A stretch of 47,009 nucleotides of DNA from Candidatus Rokuibacteriota bacterium (GCA_044866005.1 JBIOTN010000078.1:1-47009); one strand, 5' to 3'; shown: positions 3,775 to 14,995, counted from the first letter of the stretch. Notes: generated by a model not told the origin, from the sequence alone. Made by a program: numbers and translations.

Positions 3775-3800
3775 AACACGCGGGCGCGCCGCGACATTCC
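3775..3800 (-). promoter_or_regulatory. ECF promoter GGAAT-N18-GTT
   Basis: Minus strand GGAAT at 3800-3796 and GTT at 3777-3775, upstream of the AhpD-like selenoprotein gene. Confidence 0.72.
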
Positions 3801-3818: not shown

Positions 3819-4763
3819 CTACCGGGACGGCTCGGTCGGCGGAGGCCCGCTCGGCGCGGCGGGCGCAGCCTGCAGCTCCCGGCGGAGCCGGGCGATCGTG
3901 TCCTGCTCGAATTCCTGGAGGGATTGACCGAACGCGCGGCGGAAGTTCCCGAACCGGTCGTCGGAGGTCCGGAACATCCCGAAGTATCCGACCAGCGCGG
4001 GAAGCCCGTGGCGGCGGATCAGCTCGGCGGTCATGAGGAACGCCAGCCGGTAGGTCAAGCCGTCCCCCGTCTGCAGGTGGCGCGCCTCCCAGCCGCGGGG
4101 CCGCCCGAGGTCCACGAGGTCCAGCGGGACGGCGTCCAGGCGGCTGAGGTCCTCGCCGACGGCTCGCATCGCCGCCTCACGCTCGTCGCTGAGACGCGTC
4201 TGGCCGAGCCGCTCGAGCACCTGGCAGGCGACCCAGTCGGCCAGGCCCTCGCGCAGCCACTGCTCCGAGCTGCCGCGCCGCCCGGCGGACAGCTCGTACT
4301 GCGCGACGTGGGTCAGCTCGTGGGCCAGCACGACGAGCCAGGCGTGCGGGCGCCCCCGCCGCAAGGCGCCGTCGTTCAGGAACAGATGTCCCGCCTGGCC
4401 CAGACCGACCGAGTAGGCGGCGATCTCCGACGCCCGCCGGGCCGGCATCTGCCCCACTCCACGAAGCCCCGCGGCGTAGGCGGCGCGATCGGGATAGACG
4501 AATACCGTGAACTCGGCCGGCAGCGGAAGCCCGAGGTCGCCGATGATGATGGCCGAGATCGCCTCGATGGCGGCGTCGTAAGTCGTCGGCGGTTCGGCGG
4601 AGCGCGCGGGCGCGACGCTGTCGGGGGCGAGGCGGACGTGCAGGACCAGGCTCCGCCCGGCGCAGCCGGCGAGGAGAACGGCGACGAGCCCGAAAGCAGC
4701 GGCGCGCCCGCCCCGCCGTCCTCGGGGCATCGCCGCGCGGAAGCTCCCGACGTCCGTCCCCAC
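3819..4763 (-). CDS. Putative lipoprotein with zinc-metallopeptidase motif (peptidase MA-like)
   Basis: Lipobox LAGC, LAHELTHV (HExxH) and WLREGLAD. The start could be 4730. Confidence 0.72.
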   Translation of the reverse strand: MGTDVGSFRAAMPRGRRGGRAAAFGLVAVLLAGCAGRSLVLHVRLAPDSVAPARSAEPPTTYDAAIEAISAIIIGDLGLPLPAEFTVFVYPDRAAYAAGLRGVGQMPARRASEIAAYSVGLGQAGHLFLNDGALRRGRPHAWLVVLAHELTHVAQYELSAGRRGSSEQWLREGLADWVACQVLERLGQTRLSDEREAAMRAVGEDLSRLDAVPLDLVDLGRPRGWEARHLQTGDGLTYRLAFLMTAELIRRHGLPALVGYFGMFRTSDDRFGNFRRAFGQSLQEFEQDTIARLRRELQAAPAAPSGPPPTEPSR

Positions 4764-4945
4764 TCGCCCTCCCCCGATTGCCGCGTCGCCCCGAGGTGCC
4801 GCCCTTCAGGCCGTGGGGCGCCGCCGGGACGGCTACGGTTGTACCCGCTCGCCTCGCCGGGGTCCAGAGAAATCTCGGGCGGCGCAGCGCTCGTGAAGAT
4901 CGGCTCGAGCGGTGGGGAGGTCAGGCGCGAGGGGCGACACCGCGG

Positions 4946-5761
4946 TCAGGGCGCGGGCGGTCCGGCGCAGCGGAAGCCGATCAGGACGTGCCGGCTCTCT
5001 GCCGGCCGGCCATGGCGGAACGCGGGCCGGCAGAGGCCGGGCTCGTCGTCCCAGCCGCAGCCCTTGAGGACGCGCCGGCCGTCGGCGAGCGCCGAGGCGG
5101 TCCACTGGAAGACGTTGCCGACGGCGTCGAGGAGGCCGTAGGGGCTCGCGCCGGTCGGGTACCGGGTGACGGGAGTGGTCGCGCTCGGCCCGCGCGCCTC
5201 GCTGTTGAGCCGGTCGGGGTCCCAGCCATTGCCCCAGGGAAAGAGGTGCCCGTCGTCGCCCCGCGCCGCCTTCTCCCACTCGGCCTCCGAGGGCAGGCGC
5301 ACGGTCGGGTGGCGGGCACGGCAGAAGGCTGCCGCATCCGCCGCGCTCACGAGCACGACGGGGTGGTCGCCGAGACCCGCCGGCGGGTGGCCGTCGCGCC
5401 AGAGGTACCGCGTCACGACCCGGTCGTAGTCGTGCACGAGGAAGCCCTGGCGCCGGTAGTCCTCGCGGCTGATCCCCGGGGCGCGGTGGCCCGTCCGGGC
5501 CACGAACCGCTCGTACTCGGCCTGGGTGACCAGGTGACGATCGATGCAGAAAGCCGGCAGGCTCTCCTGCCGGCGGGGCAGCTCGGCGTCGAACCAGCGG
5601 GCCTCGCGCACGGCCGCGCTCGAGAGCGCGGCGGCCATGGCTCGCTCGGCCTGGTCGCTCCCCATCCAGAACGGGCCCGCCGGAACGAGCACCATGCGCT
5701 CCGCGTCGGCACACACCGCGCCGGCGGCGACGAGGGCGCCGAGGAACAGGCTACCGATCAC
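4946..5761 (-). CDS. FGE-sulfatase (SUMF1/EgtB/PvdO-like) domain protein, exported
   Basis: Signal peptide, VPAGPFWMGS, HPVVLVS, RLPSEAEWEKAARG, FPWG, SPYGLLDAVGNVFQW, IGFRC. Confidence 0.88.
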   Translation of the reverse strand: MIGSLFLGALVAAGAVCADAERMVLVPAGPFWMGSDQAERAMAAALSSAAVREARWFDAELPRRQESLPAFCIDRHLVTQAEYERFVARTGHRAPGISREDYRRQGFLVHDYDRVVTRYLWRDGHPPAGLGDHPVVLVSAADAAAFCRARHPTVRLPSEAEWEKAARGDDGHLFPWGNGWDPDRLNSEARGPSATTPVTRYPTGASPYGLLDAVGNVFQWTASALADGRRVLKGCGWDDEPGLCRPAFRHGRPAESRHVLIGFRCAGPPAP

Positions 5762-5767
5762 GGCCCG

Positions 5768-6765
5768 TCATCGTCCCCGGCGCGCCGGCAGCCGCCAGCG
5801 CACGGTCGGGGCTTTGAGCGCGAGCGTCGCGCCGGCGGCCATGGCGGCCGTCGCGACGGCGCTGTTGACGGACAGGATCGAAAGCCCGGTGAGGGCGTTG
5901 CCGACGTTGCAGCCGGCCGCCAGCGTGCCCCCGATGCCCATCAAGAGCCCGCCGGCAGCGCGGCGGCAGAGCTCGGAGGCGGGCGGGACCCGCCACCGAA
6001 CGCCTCCCTGGGGGCGCGCGCTCACGAACGTGCCGAGCGGCACCCGACCAGCATCGCCGTTCCCCAGGAGAGAGGCGCCACGGTGCGTCCCAGCACAGCC
6101 TCGACAAGCGAGCGGCTGGGGCCGGTCATCGACAGCCCCCAGGCCCACCCGGCAGCGGCTCCGGTCAACCAGGCGAGAACCCCGGCGGCGCCGAGGACCA
6201 CGCCCGTGGCCGACCACGGCCAGGCGCCCGGCTCGCGCGGCACAGGCGGCAGGCGCCGGAAGAGGGCAGCGATCGCGAGAATCGCCGCGGCAACGACCAG
6301 CCAGGCCGGCACGTCGAGGAGGGCGTCGAGCGACGGCGCGAGCGGGGGCCGCGACCGGGCCTCGCCGAGCCAGCCGGCGAGCGAGAGGAGCGGCCCCCGG
6401 ACTGTGAACAGGCCACCCAGGCCGAAGGCGAGGGCAGCCACGGTCGCGCCGACGCTTCCGGTCCCGGCCCGGGACCAGACCGACGTGGCTCACCCCTTGG
6501 CGAGGATCATACCCACGCCGAAGACGGCCCCGCCCACCGCCGCGCCGAGCACCGCGACGGGCGGCACGGGGACGCGGAGGAGCCCCCAGGCGGCCAGTCC
6601 ATTGACGGTGCCGAGCTGGAGGGCGAGCGCCAGAAGGTAGGCGCGCCCGGAGGGCCCGGCGTGGCCCGCGAGCGCCTCGCGAAAGGCCGAATGCATGCAG
6701 AAGTCCCCCCGATGCAGGGCAACCCCGAGGCCGAGGCCGACCAAAAGCGCAGCCGCCATCCACAT
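5768..6765 (-). CDS. YeeE/YedE-family sulfur-compound transporter, putative selenoprotein (Sec92), with one frameshift near 6044
   Basis: Motifs: HRGDFC, GGAVFGVGMILAKG-TGA(6490-6492)-ATS, and GGLLMGIGGTLAAGCNVG. Segments 6490..6765 and 6022..6441 share a frame. The C-terminus continues in another frame after GTCGGGTGCCG (one G missing). GAGGAGG RBS. Confidence 0.8.
6457..6479 (-). promoter_or_regulatory. SECIS-like hairpin
   Basis: TCTGGTCCCG-GGC-CGGGACCGGA: 10 bp with one GU pair. The loop starts with G, 20 nt after the UGA. Confidence 0.62.
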
Positions 6766-6776
6766 CTACCTCCTCG

Positions 6777-6802
6777 AACCCGCCGCGTGCCCGCGTCATT
6801 CC
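6777..6802 (-). promoter_or_regulatory. ECF promoter GGAAT-N18-GTT
   Basis: Minus strand GGAAT at 6802-6798 and GTT at 6779-6777, just upstream of the YeeE start. It would give a very short leader. Confidence 0.62.
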
Positions 6803-6819
6803 GCCGAGAAAGACCCACT

Positions 6820-6844
6820 GGAATAAACGGCGCCGGGCCGGGTT
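6820..6844 (+). promoter_or_regulatory. ECF promoter variant GGAAT-N17-GTT
   Basis: GGAATA at 6820 and GGGTT ending at 6844. Divergent from the YeeE promoter, upstream of the Cys-repeat peptide. Confidence 0.58.
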
Positions 6845-6882
6845 CTGGGTAGCAGCGGAGTGTGCTCCGCGGAAAGGGGGTG

Positions 6883-7107
6883 ATGCCCGTGGTGCGACGC
6901 GTGATCGGCACCGTCTCCGCGGCCGCGCTCCTGGCGCTGGGCGGCGGGGTGGCCGCGCAGCAGGCGAACCCGTGCGCCGCCAAGAACCCCTGTGCCGTGA
7001 AGGCCGGGAACCCGTGCGCCGCGAAGAACCCCTGCGCCGCGAAAAACCCCTGTGCGGCCAAGAACCCCTGCGCCGCCAAGAACCCCTGCGCGCCGAAGAC
7101 CCAGTAG
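6883..7107 (+). CDS. Small secreted Cys-rich peptide with seven NPCAAK-type repeats
   Basis: RBS AAAGGGGG; signal peptide ending VAA-QQ. The mature part is almost entirely NPCA(A/V/P)K. The start may be 6883, 6889 or 6892. Confidence 0.85.
   Translation: MPVVRRVIGTVSAAALLALGGGVAAQQANPCAAKNPCAVKAGNPCAAKNPCAAKNPCAAKNPCAAKNPCAPKTQ
6967..7098 (+). repeat. 18-nt coding tandem repeat (7 units, one 6-nt insertion)
   Basis: Units of AACCCSTGYGCSGCSAAR; variation is mostly synonymous third-position changes. Confidence 0.9.
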
Positions 7108-7231: not shown

Positions 7232-7257
7232 GGAATAACCACGTGCCATTGCGGGTT
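7232..7257 (+). promoter_or_regulatory. ECF autoregulatory promoter GGAAT-N18-GTT
   Basis: GGAAT at 7232-7236 and GTT at 7255-7257, directly upstream of the sigma factor gene. Confidence 0.78.
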
Positions 7258-7280: not shown

Positions 7281-7868
7281 GTGCCGGTGATCGGCTGGAT
7301 GGCGGGGGACGACCGGGTCCGGGAGTTCGAGGAGACGGTGCTCGTCCACCTCGATGCCCTCTACCGAGTCGGGCTCCGGTTGACCCAGAACCGGGCCGAA
7401 GCCGAAGATGTGGCGCAGGAGACGTGCCTCCGGGCCTTCCGGAGCTTCCACCGCTTCAACGCGGGGACGAACTGTCGGGCCTGGCTCTTCACGATCCTGC
7501 GTAACGTCTTCCTGAACCGGCTGCGGCGGGCGGGGCGCGAGGCCGTCCCGACCGACCCGGCCGTGTGGGAGTCGGTGGGAGCAGAGAGCGTGACGGCGAT
7601 GACACCGGTCGCGGACAATCCCGAGGAGGAGTTCTTCCAGACGGTGCTCCACGGCGACGTGGATCGGGCCCTGAAGGGGTTGCCGCTCGTCTTCCGCGAG
7701 GCCGTGATCCTGGCCGACCTGGAAGGGCTCAGCTACAAGGAAATGAGCGAGGCCCTGGGCTGCCCGATCGGGACGGTGATGTCGCGGCTGTTCAGGGGAC
7801 GCAACCTCCTTCGTCACGCGCTCGCCCGGTACGCCCGCGAGCACGGATACATCAAGGGACCGGAATGA
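7281..7868 (+). CDS. ECF RNA polymerase sigma factor (SigR/SigH-like)
   Basis: AEDVAQETCLRAFRSFHRFNAGTNCRAWLFTILRN (region 2) and LEGLSYKEMSEALGCPIGTVMSRLFRGR (region 4). Alternative start at 7299. Confidence 0.93.
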   Translation: MPVIGWMAGDDRVREFEETVLVHLDALYRVGLRLTQNRAEAEDVAQETCLRAFRSFHRFNAGTNCRAWLFTILRNVFLNRLRRAGREAVPTDPAVWESVGAESVTAMTPVADNPEEEFFQTVLHGDVDRALKGLPLVFREAVILADLEGLSYKEMSEALGCPIGTVMSRLFRGRNLLRHALARYAREHGYIKGPE

Positions 7869-8647
7869 CCTGCGAAGAGTTTCGGGCGCGCCTGTCCCCG
7901 TACGCCGACGGCGAGGTCGGCGTCGACGAGACCCTCGCCGCGGACGCGCACGCCGCGCGGTGCGGCCGCTGCGAGGCCCTCGTCGCGCGCGAACGGCAGT
8001 TCCGCCAGCTCCTGCGGCGTCAGCCGCGGGAGTCGGCGCGCCCGGAGCTTCGCGCCCGGATCCTCGCGGAGTGCCGCCGGGAGGTGCGTCGGGCGCGGCT
8101 CCGACCCTGGCTCTGGGCCCCGCCCCTCGCGGCCGCGGCGGCCCTGGCGGTCGCGGCGCTCCTGCCGGCGACGCGCCCGGCCCCGCCTGTCGTCGGGCAG
8201 CTCGTGGCCGTTCACCTCGCGTACGCGGAGCTCGAGCGCCCGGCGGAGTTCGCCTCGACCGATCGCGCCGAGGTCGAAGAGTGGTTCCATCAGCGCGCGC
8301 GGCTTCGCGTCATCGTGCCGGACTACTCGTCGGCGGGGATCCGCCTGGTCGGCGGGCGCATCGCCGAGGTCCGCGAGCGGCGCGCCGCGTATCTCCTCTA
8401 CGAGAAGGGGCACACGCTCCTGTCGGTCTTCATGCTGCCCGTCCCGGCCGGTGACCTGCGCCTCACCGGCACGCGCAGGAGCTCCGGGGGGTTTGAGTAC
8501 TACACCGAGGAGCGGAACGGGCTCCGCACCGTCTCCTGGACGGAGGGAGAGTCGCTCTTCGGGCTCGTGTCCATGCTGGACTACGACGCCCTCTTCGAGT
8601 GCGCGGACCGGCTGCGCGCCGAGCGGGCAAGCCAACGTCCACTCTAG
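7865..8647 (+). CDS. Zinc-finger (zf-HC2/ZAS) transmembrane anti-sigma factor
   Basis: ATGA overlap with the sigma gene. MTCEE...HAARCGRC (HxxxCxxC), a TM helix and an extracytoplasmic domain. Confidence 0.9.
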   Translation: MTCEEFRARLSPYADGEVGVDETLAADAHAARCGRCEALVARERQFRQLLRRQPRESARPELRARILAECRREVRRARLRPWLWAPPLAAAAALAVAALLPATRPAPPVVGQLVAVHLAYAELERPAEFASTDRAEVEEWFHQRARLRVIVPDYSSAGIRLVGGRIAEVRERRAAYLLYEKGHTLLSVFMLPVPAGDLRLTGTRRSSGGFEYYTEERNGLRTVSWTEGESLFGLVSMLDYDALFECADRLRAERASQRPL

Positions 8648-14036: not shown

Positions 14037-14062
14037 GGAATATTCCCATCGGGCTCGGGGTT
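14037..14062 (+). promoter_or_regulatory. ECF promoter GGAAT-N18-GTT
   Basis: GGAAT at 14037-14041 and GTT at 14060-14062, in an AT-rich patch upstream of doxX-merF-grx. Confidence 0.72.
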
Positions 14063-14181: not shown

Positions 14182-14700
14182 ATGAGCGGGAATGTCGTTG
14201 GCCTGGACGCGCGCGTTCCGGGGTGGCCGCTGGCCCTGTTCCGGATCGCCTTTGGGATCCTCTACCTCGACATGGCCCTGCAAAAGGCGCCATGGAAGAA
14301 CTACGGCTGGCTCGGCGGGTTCATCGAGCAAGAGATCGCCCATCCCGCCGTTCCGTCGGTCGCGGCCTTCCTCAAGGCGGTCGTGCTCCCGAACCTCGCG
14401 GTGTTCGGGATGGTGACGTTCCTCGTCGAGATCGCTCTGGGCGCGGCGCTCCTGCTCGGCGTCCTGACGCGCCTGGTCGGGATCGCCGGGTTCGCCTGGC
14501 AGCTCAACATCGCCCTCCAAGCCTACGCCGTCCCTGGCGAGTGGTACTGGGTCTGGCCGCTCCTGGCGCTGCCCCAGCTGTGCTTCGCCTTCGGGGATGC
14601 CGGCCAGATCCTCGGAGTCGACCGCTGGCTTCAGCCTTGGCTCCGCGAGCGCGCCCACCAGGGCGCCAGCTGGGCCGGCCTCCTCGCGCGTGCGACCTGA
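14182..14700 (+). CDS. DoxX/DoxD-like membrane protein
   Basis: GGAGG RBS; LALFRIAFGILYL...K, EIALGAALLLGVLTR, LGVDRWL. Confidence 0.82.
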   Translation: MSGNVVGLDARVPGWPLALFRIAFGILYLDMALQKAPWKNYGWLGGFIEQEIAHPAVPSVAAFLKAVVLPNLAVFGMVTFLVEIALGAALLLGVLTRLVGIAGFAWQLNIALQAYAVPGEWYWVWPLLALPQLCFAFGDAGQILGVDRWLQPWLRERAHQGASWAGLLARAT

Positions 14701-14752
14701 CGGCGCCCGCGGCGGCACCGTCTCGGCAGCGCCGCCGATCCATCCCGACCGC

Positions 14753-14995
14753 ATGGACGCATCGAAGTGGTTTCGAATCGGCACCCTGGGAACGATCGTG
14801 GCCGCGATCTGCTGCTCGACCCCCATCCTGGCGCTGGTCCTCGGGGCCCTGGGGCTGAGCGCCTGGTTGAGCTCGGCCGACTACGTGCTGATTCCGACCC
14901 TCCTCGCGTTCGCGGGGCTCACCGGGTATGCCGCCTACCGCATGCGCCGGGAACGCCGGCAACGCCGGCCGGAAGCGTCGGCAGGTGAGCCGTGA
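14753..14995 (+). CDS. merF: MerF-like mercury/heavy-metal transport protein
   Basis: IGTLGTIVAAICCSTPILALVLGALGLSAW...DYVLIP matches the MerF pattern (vicinal CC in TM1). Confidence 0.78.
   Translation: MDASKWFRIGTLGTIVAAICCSTPILALVLGALGLSAWLSSADYVLIPTLLAFAGLTGYAAYRMRRERRQRRPEASAGEP

Follow-up and report, generated by a model that had tools for sequence, protein, structure and literature searches.

Does an in-frame TGA at a conserved cysteine of a YeeE/YedE transporter gene specify selenocysteine (Sec), or does it mark a gene in decay? The question is raised by a locus in a 47,009-nucleotide stretch of DNA from a Candidatus Rokuibacteriota bacterium (GCA_044866005.1, JBIOTN010000078.1:1-47009; the whole stretch analysed is called the window below), in which a sequence-only reading had proposed a selenocysteine-containing transporter. 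The features to which we refer are collected in Table 1.

Table 1 Features of the window and of homologous loci. Positions are those of the window unless a locus is named.
Feature	Position	Strand	Remarks
YeeE/YedE gene, whole	6765-5768	minus	One gene split over two frames by one missing base
YeeE/YedE first-frame part, codons 1-241	6043-6765	minus	PF04143 profile 1-236; 6LEO residues 4-247, E 1.6e-21
Predicted UGA Sec codon, codon 92	6490-6492	minus	GMILAKG-U-ATSVWSR; column of Cys91 of S. thermophila YeeE
SECIS-like recoding hairpin	6448-6489	minus	Core stem-loop 6457-6479; apical loop begins GG, 20 nt past UGA
Frameshift site	6043-6045	minus	GGG without one G
YeeE C-terminal 91 codons, shifted frame, with third pore Cys (LAAGCNVGN)	5768-6043	minus	Stop TGA 5768-5770; PF04143 profile 239-309
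Secreted FGE-sulfatase-domain protein, directly downstream of YeeE	4946-5761	minus	PF03781, E 7.9e-42
Divergent partner gene: signal peptide and about seven NPCAAK repeats	6862-7107	plus	True start perhaps a few codons past 6862
NPCAAK homologs	L053 5639-5908; L059 5610-5840; L057 274-489; L027 1140-1367; L069 3-113		Divergent to Sec-YeeE
ECF-type promoter motif GGAAT-N18-GTT	6777-6802	minus	Ends 11 nt ahead of YeeE start codon
ECF-type promoter motif GGAAT-N17-GTT	6820-6844	plus	Faces NPCAAK gene
Third motif GGAAT-N18-GTT	7232-7257	plus	Immediately ahead of ECF sigma gene
ECF sigma gene	7281-7868	plus	Best NCBIfam match SigH_actino, 155 bits, under cut-off 251.55
zf-HC2 anti-sigma gene	~7868-8647	plus	Best NCBIfam match antisig_RsrA, 39 bits, under cut-off 62.5
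Further motifs GGAAT-N17-19-GTT	1817-1842; 3775-3800; 14037-14062	plus; minus; plus	Precede MerR-like gene, small gene at ~3753, DoxD-like/MerF pair

The gene starts with an ATG at 6765 that is preceded by GAGGAGG, and its first frame reads MWMAAALLVG...RGDFCMHSA...FGVGMILAKG-TGA(6490-6492)-ATSVWSRAGTGS.... When the TGA is read through, residues 19-241 match positions 1-236 of the PF04143 (Sulf_transp) profile (E 1.4e-34, 120.5 bits), and the frame at 5768-6043 matches positions 239-309 (E 5.6e-19, 69.2 bits). Both frames exceed the gathering cut-off of 27 bits and jointly cover positions 1-309 of 310, which bears out the assignment of 5768-6765 to a YeeE/YedE transporter. More specific NCBIfam models scored below their cut-offs: the TsuA/YeeE models NF052577 and NF041049 reached 104.5 (cut-off 400) and 75.7 (cut-off 645) with a 241-residue partial query, which lowers the score, and the YedE/FdhT models (NF033796, TIGR04112) gave 34.3 and 38.5 bits versus 350, and 18.4 versus 200. 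No Sec-specific NCBIfam model matched the window gene, and no TusA/YeeD-like partner (PF01206) was found on the window's contig (C78), the matches in the genome lying only on contigs C162, C74 and C3.

The TGA had been read as following GMILAKG at a conserved Cys of the family, and the YeeE structure had been named as a check. Residues 5-241 of the window protein align to S. thermophila YeeE (StYeeE; 6LEO) with an E value of 1.6e-21, and U92 falls opposite C91; in the mutant chain 6LEP (C91A), Ala stands at the column aligned to U92. According to the available text of PMC7449682, the protein is thinnest where C22, C91 and C293 of StYeeE cross it in a row with a spacing of ~7 A, the crystal shows a C22-C91 disulfide, the C91A and C293A variants do not complement, and Ser cannot substitute for the equivalent pore Cys of E. 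coli YeeE. The three pore positions are accounted for in the window gene by Cys23, UGA codon 92 and the Cys of AAGCN, and selenium would therefore sit on the middle relay residue, U92 being opposite C91. The retention of the two other Cys had also been claimed; this holds in frame for DFC (RGDFCMHSA, Cys23), while AAGCN (LAAGCNVGN) is present, but only in the shifted frame.

A Sec column that alternates with Cys among close relatives is the classical mark of a true selenoprotein. At E<=1e-10, 30 of 61 related genomes gave a match, with 35 match rows in all, eight of which carried one TGA (the seven best-scoring rows and one weak row); the other 27 were without TGA. Each of the seven top-scoring rows (identities 100, 62, 54, 50, 53, 55 and 38%) has exactly one TGA, and the seven translated loci place it in one column, GM[IV][LMA][AG][KR]G-TGA-ATS[VI]WSR, the most distant locus reading GMALAGG-TGA-TTGLSYR. 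Every ortholog of 50-62% identity found in the related genomes thus has TGA at the Sec column. The sequence-only reading had named the finding that would speak against it, namely close homologs that all have Cys and a TGA private to this sequence; the comparison came out for Sec, with the seven best rows among the 61 genomes sharing both the TGA column and the hairpin described below. A phylum-wide comparison over 251 genomes gave 40 rows at E<=1e-25, of which 24 contain one TGA and the other 16 are free of it. TGA at the C91 column was confirmed in 15 of the 24 TGA rows, two (G079 and G068) have it at another pore Cys and seven are without a locus; one of the 24 rows (G104) is marked unpublished.

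Cys forms occur in the window's own clade as well, both as proteins (P0004 and P0005; GMV[VL]AKG-C-ATS[VI]WSR) and at the locus L054/L133, which has TGC at the Sec column. In a quick tree, the window clade (seven Sec forms and one Cys form) makes up a long, fully supported branch separate from the Methylomirabilis groups, and the Sec label requires at least 3-4 changes. Elsewhere in the phylum, loci L135-L154 of a single genus carry the same YeeE ortholog (FSGG-x-ASGSTYRSGE) with Sec in some species and Cys in others; the codon that forms or closes the stem in this genus is ACU in Sec forms and ACG or ACC in Cys forms, with AGU for Ser in one. In a further Methylomirabilota YeeE group, L147 (G079) and L153 (G068) have TGA at the C22 column (SERGRF-TGA-MLSAF), ~20 codons into the YeeE match, together with a Cys kept at the C91 column and a hairpin of their own ~10 nt past the UGA. 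Different pore Cys therefore appear to have turned to Sec in different clades.

The public entries closest to the window protein (P0002, P0007 and most of P0003-P0027) are fragmentary, with 194-273 residues and starts at varied codons past the UGA. Such calls, which hold for most close relatives, would suit a gene that a true stop naturally divides in two, with 91 residues before the stop and a second piece after it, in the manner of two-gene YeeE/YedE systems. However, the called starts vary among entries (MGTGS..., MWSRVG...), fall within the stretch of conserved peptide and hairpin and have no start codon in common, the Cys orthologs are continuous over 340-345 residues, and the stop would fall exactly on an essential Cys. 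We regard a natural split as highly improbable; the window clade is systematically mis-annotated in public entries as truncated proteins.

Sec recoding in bacteria usually follows the rule of a stem-loop shortly after the UGA with a G in its apical loop (bSECIS). The 10-bp hairpin that had been noticed after the TGA was found, UCUGGUCCCG-GGC-CGGGACCGGA forming 10 pairs that begin 10 nt downstream of the UGA. The 45 nt from the UGA gave -26 kcal/mol (z = -2.58), and 3 of 200 shuffles were equally good. By itself, the window hairpin is only modestly unusual for 77% G+C, and the weight rests on the comparative evidence. A hairpin of 9-10 bp in the same register is present in 18 of 18 distinct Sec forms; over these sequences, which belong to three motif groups, 92% of the cells of the 9-pair stem are paired, versus 37-65% in controls in which the partner was slid by 1-3 columns. 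Three stem pairs are altered on both sides (G-C to C-G, G-C to U-A and C-G to A-U), although these two-sided changes divide the Rokubacteria-type from the Methylomirabilis-type groups and represent about one split, hence few independent events.

The Cys forms give the corresponding contrast: Sec forms keep 7-9 of the nine pairs (mean 8.28), while 78 distinct Cys forms keep a mean of 4.74. The Cys ortholog at L054 has the same WSRVGT peptide as the Sec forms, but its stem is broken by CGC and GGA in place of their CGG and GGG. As a counterweight, the residues that follow Sec are themselves conserved, and this in turn constrains the RNA. The homolog search that had been suggested, for TGA versus TGC together with the hairpin, thus recovered both forms, the hairpin being kept in Sec forms and degraded in Cys forms. 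The selD gene of the same genome has a hairpin whose GG-initiated loop lies at the identical distance, 20 nt past its UGA.

The source genome (94% complete, 247 contigs) encodes tRNA-Sec (76.2 bits; ARAGORN anticodon tca), selA (595 bits), selB (382 bits) and selD, all over cut-off, with selA and selB both adjoining tRNA-Sec on contig C79. In two other genomes with Sec forms, G032 (93% complete) and G024 (89% complete), selA was not found, which is a point against the Sec reading. The selD gene (L018; C1:1101-2021, minus strand) is itself a selenoprotein gene with one in-frame TGA (HGAG-TGA-ACKLG). A reassigned TGA (code 4 or 25) was ruled out because TGA also serves as an ordinary stop, ending the window YeeE gene (5768-5770) and three of the four intact orthologs. 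On comparative grounds, it is very well supported at the level of the gene lineage that the TGA is a genuine, conserved Sec codon at the central pore Cys.

The window gene itself has no continuous full-length frame. Its first frame meets a premature TGA at 6022-6024, for a product of 247 codons, and the PF04143 matches of the two frames abut at ...WGTAMLVG / VPLGTF.... Exactly one base is missing, because the intact orthologs read ...MLVGVPLG... in a single frame; these (L025, L026, L027 and L028) have frames of 324-329 codons that are uninterrupted but for the Sec TGA. The frameshift that had been flagged near the TGA is therefore real, with one G missing at 6043-6045, and it recurs in independent assemblies. 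In Logan contigs from four soil metagenome runs of two studies, 5996-6083 is covered with 0 gaps, and three of them span 5600-6900 in one piece, although such contigs drop rare variants and a minority intact allele may be hidden. Three SNPs (6289 G>A, 6580 G>C and 6712 A>G), each a synonymous third-position change in the YeeE frame, set the contigs of two of the four runs apart from the window.

The break falls within a short run of G where the DNA has ~70% G+C, and the evidence comes from assembled contigs, not raw reads, both of which would fit an assembly error or consensus artefact in a window gene that is in fact intact. The four runs from two studies nevertheless agree with 0 gaps, and the contigs that carry their own SNPs are not copies of one assembly, which makes this explanation very unlikely. 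The deletion is in the population and is no one-off assembly error, because gap-free contigs recur and two of them have SNPs of their own.

With the deletion accepted, the TGA could in turn be viewed as a nonsense mutation in a decaying pseudogene, the frameshift being a second lesion. A genuine frameshift 150 codons downstream of the TGA would agree with this, as would the second YeeE paralog of the genome, of the Cys type (C136:21174-21893), which could take over the function. Against it, at least seven other genomes have orthologs that carry TGA in this very column and are intact elsewhere, the hairpin is confined to the TGA forms and all three inter-strain SNPs are synonymous third-position changes, so that a nonsense origin of the TGA is extremely improbable. 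The Sec codon would thus be ancestral, though the window copy may be decaying.

What the deletion does to this copy is a separate matter. The 247-codon product is without the last helices and without the C293-equivalent Cys, which is essential in characterised homologs, and on balance the window copy has probably been inactivated recently. The broken gene might still work if the 91-codon tail were re-initiated at the GTG at 6043-6041, or reached by a -1 slip, and joined the 247-residue Sec part. The GTG lies exactly at the junction, the tail is 54-69% identical to same-clade orthologs with all motif residues kept, the break persists in two strain variants and the strain SNPs are all synonymous; three SNPs are, however, not enough to demonstrate selection, open frames arise easily where G+C is high, and there is neither a Shine-Dalgarno-like sequence at the proper distance nor a slippery heptamer. 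We consider a functional two-piece protein unlikely, and recent inactivation remains our preferred reading for the window copy. A programmed -1 frameshift at the G run was likewise judged unlikely, no X XXY YYZ heptamer being present.

The surroundings of the gene set the clade apart. Divergently oriented, ~100 bp upstream of Sec-YeeE, lies the gene for an NPCAAK-repeat peptide, both in the window and in five of five other Sec-clade loci with upstream flank (L056 has no such flank and is outside this count). The peptide gene had no match to a Pfam or NCBIfam family, and neither the Cys ortholog L054 nor the Methylomirabilis-type Sec-YeeE loci have it as a neighbour. The FGE-like gene downstream also adjoins the YeeE ortholog in L059, with 77% identity. 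Weak EgtB/SenA-like matches of the FGE-like protein (4946-5761) are far under cut-off. Further downstream of YeeE, 3819-4763 (minus strand) encodes a 314-residue protein with a HELTH motif and no family. In L053, a cytochrome P460-domain protein with N-terminal NPC repeats (4685-5542, minus strand) is encoded two genes from the Sec-YeeE ortholog, and more NPC-repeat ORFs occur nearby, with spurious 'Cementoin' Pfam matches. The window also contains a MerF-family mercury transport gene (14597-14992, plus strand; 82.3 bits, cut-off 50) that overlaps the end of a DoxD-like ORF.

Two back-to-back GGAAT-N17-19-GTT motifs, one per gene, lie between YeeE and the NPCAAK gene in the window and in L053, L059, L057, L027 and L069. 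The available text of PMC5005934 gives GGAAT at -35 and GTTG at -10 for Streptomyces SigR promoters. Six such motifs were counted in the window, all within 12 kb, against 0.61 expected, and 0 of 100 shuffles scored as high. Genome-wide, the strict motif gave 9 matches versus 8-14 in mononucleotide shuffles, i.e. no enrichment, with six of the nine in this 12-kb stretch; only the local cluster of six motifs is meaningful, not a genome-wide regulon. The six look like a compact SigR-like regulon island. The arrangement shares with SigR-RsrA of Streptomyces the promoter words, their spacing and an autoregulated sigma gene with a zf-HC2 anti-sigma gene behind it. It differs in that the window sigma and anti-sigma proteins score under the respective cut-offs, the anti-sigma protein has 259 residues with an extra C-terminal part and the host is not an actinobacterium.

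Taken jointly, these observations make it highly probable that the locus represents a Rokubacteria/Methylomirabilota YeeE/TsuA-like clade with Sec at the central pore Cys, encoded by a hairpin-aided UGA and putatively placed under SigR-type control, of which the window copy has since been frameshifted.

Sec in an integral-membrane transporter had been considered much more unusual than Sec in a redoxin. The Sec site stands, but it is less novel than had been assumed, as a Sec-containing YeeE/YedE family (PF04143, motif GUxSG) is already listed as a predicted selenoprotein family in the available portions of two publications (PMC13188914, 2026; PMC9312934, 2022), the first of which names YeeE/YedE among transporter subunits 'predicted to contain Sec'. 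The terms YeeE, YedE and COG2391 are absent from the main text of PMC2398784 and PMC5029168, which the 2026 review cites for its YeeE/YedE row. The window gene shares with the catalogued family the Pfam family, a single Sec at the Cys of G-C-x-S-G (GGCASG of StYeeE) and an in-frame UGA with Cys homologs, and both are predictions. The Sec site is the catalogued one, because GUxSG corresponds to GCASG around C91; the window motif KG-U-ATS[VI]WSR (GUATS) is, however, not GUxSG, and the clade occupies its own long, well-supported branch in the quick tree. What is new is the unannotated Rokubacteria-type clade; the kind itself is already catalogued as a prediction.

Compared to S. thermophila and E. 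coli YeeE (TsuA; 6LEO, 6LEP, 8J4C; PMC7449682, PMC11073785), the clade has the same three pore Cys positions and, in its intact orthologs, the same length, but it has Sec for C91 and an ECF-type promoter and poly-Cys peptide partner instead of a Cys-assimilation context. YedE/FdhT (NF033796, TIGR04112) belongs to the same superfamily and also has a selenium link, but one that stems from the genes around it and not from Sec in the protein itself. A further comparison is with the Methylomirabilis/NC10-type Sec-YeeE proteins (SGG-U-TTG..., FSGG-U-ASGSTYR), which share the phylum, the Sec column and the hairpin distance, with compensatory stem changes. They differ in their 33-38% identity to the window protein, in having no NPCAAK gene and in having no GGAAT-N17-19-GTT beside the gene start, one such motif being found at -543 in L131. 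One of them, L112 (3241-10619), lies in a sulfur-assimilation cluster with an Rrf2 regulator, a PALP enzyme (cysteine synthase), a ThiS-ThiF fusion, Sec-YeeE, a two-domain rhodanese and a ThiS-PALP fusion. Unlike in that setting, the Rokubacteria-type gene has a SigR-type promoter and a poly-Cys peptide partner; from neighbourhood and motif matches only, we infer that this clade may act in stress by thiols, sulfur or soft metals rather than in the housekeeping assimilation of thiosulfate.

A mechanism can be proposed on this basis. A SigR-type (GGAAT/GTT) ECF promoter would drive the clade gene, which stands back to back with the gene for the secreted poly-Cys peptide, and UGA 6490-6492 would be decoded by SelB and tRNA-Sec, aided by the G+C-rich hairpin 10 nt downstream with its GG-initiated apical loop. 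The predicted product is a nine-helix channel whose loop LB would be the site of the central pore Cys (Cys91 of S. thermophila YeeE). Thiosulfate is handed along three Cys across the thin middle of the solved homolog; in the clade protein, the second of these relay positions would be held by a selenolate, which is the stronger nucleophile at neutral pH. At the pore, it might bind sulfane sulfur through a transient Se-S link or pair with Cys23 as a selenenylsulfide. In the window copy, one G has since been lost at codon 241/242, so that the first frame stops after 247 codons.

More tentatively, the Sec-YeeE channel, the NPCAAK peptide and the FGE-like enzyme could constitute one envelope module under a SigR/RsrA-like switch, in which the floppy peptide would capture a periplasmic thiophilic cargo (sulfane sulfur, selenium or a soft metal, e.g. 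Hg or Cu) and hand it to the pore selenolate in a stress-induced thiol/selenol relay. We regard this scheme as doubtful; if true, it would amount to an envelope relay distinct from housekeeping thiosulfate uptake.

The window copy itself is probably dead, and the peptide partner and the SigR-type control are the parts worth following: the NPCAAK pairing and the SigR-type promoters provide a first regulatory handle on an undescribed peptide family. Sec on the middle relay Cys of a solved channel would allow a sharp test of H-bonding versus covalent chemistry, for which comparison sets are at hand in the natural Sec/Cys pairs within one genus and in a sister clade with predicted Sec at the first pore Cys. 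For the family as a whole, so far known as selenoproteins by prediction only, the locus contributes a clade that is well supported and mis-annotated in public entries.
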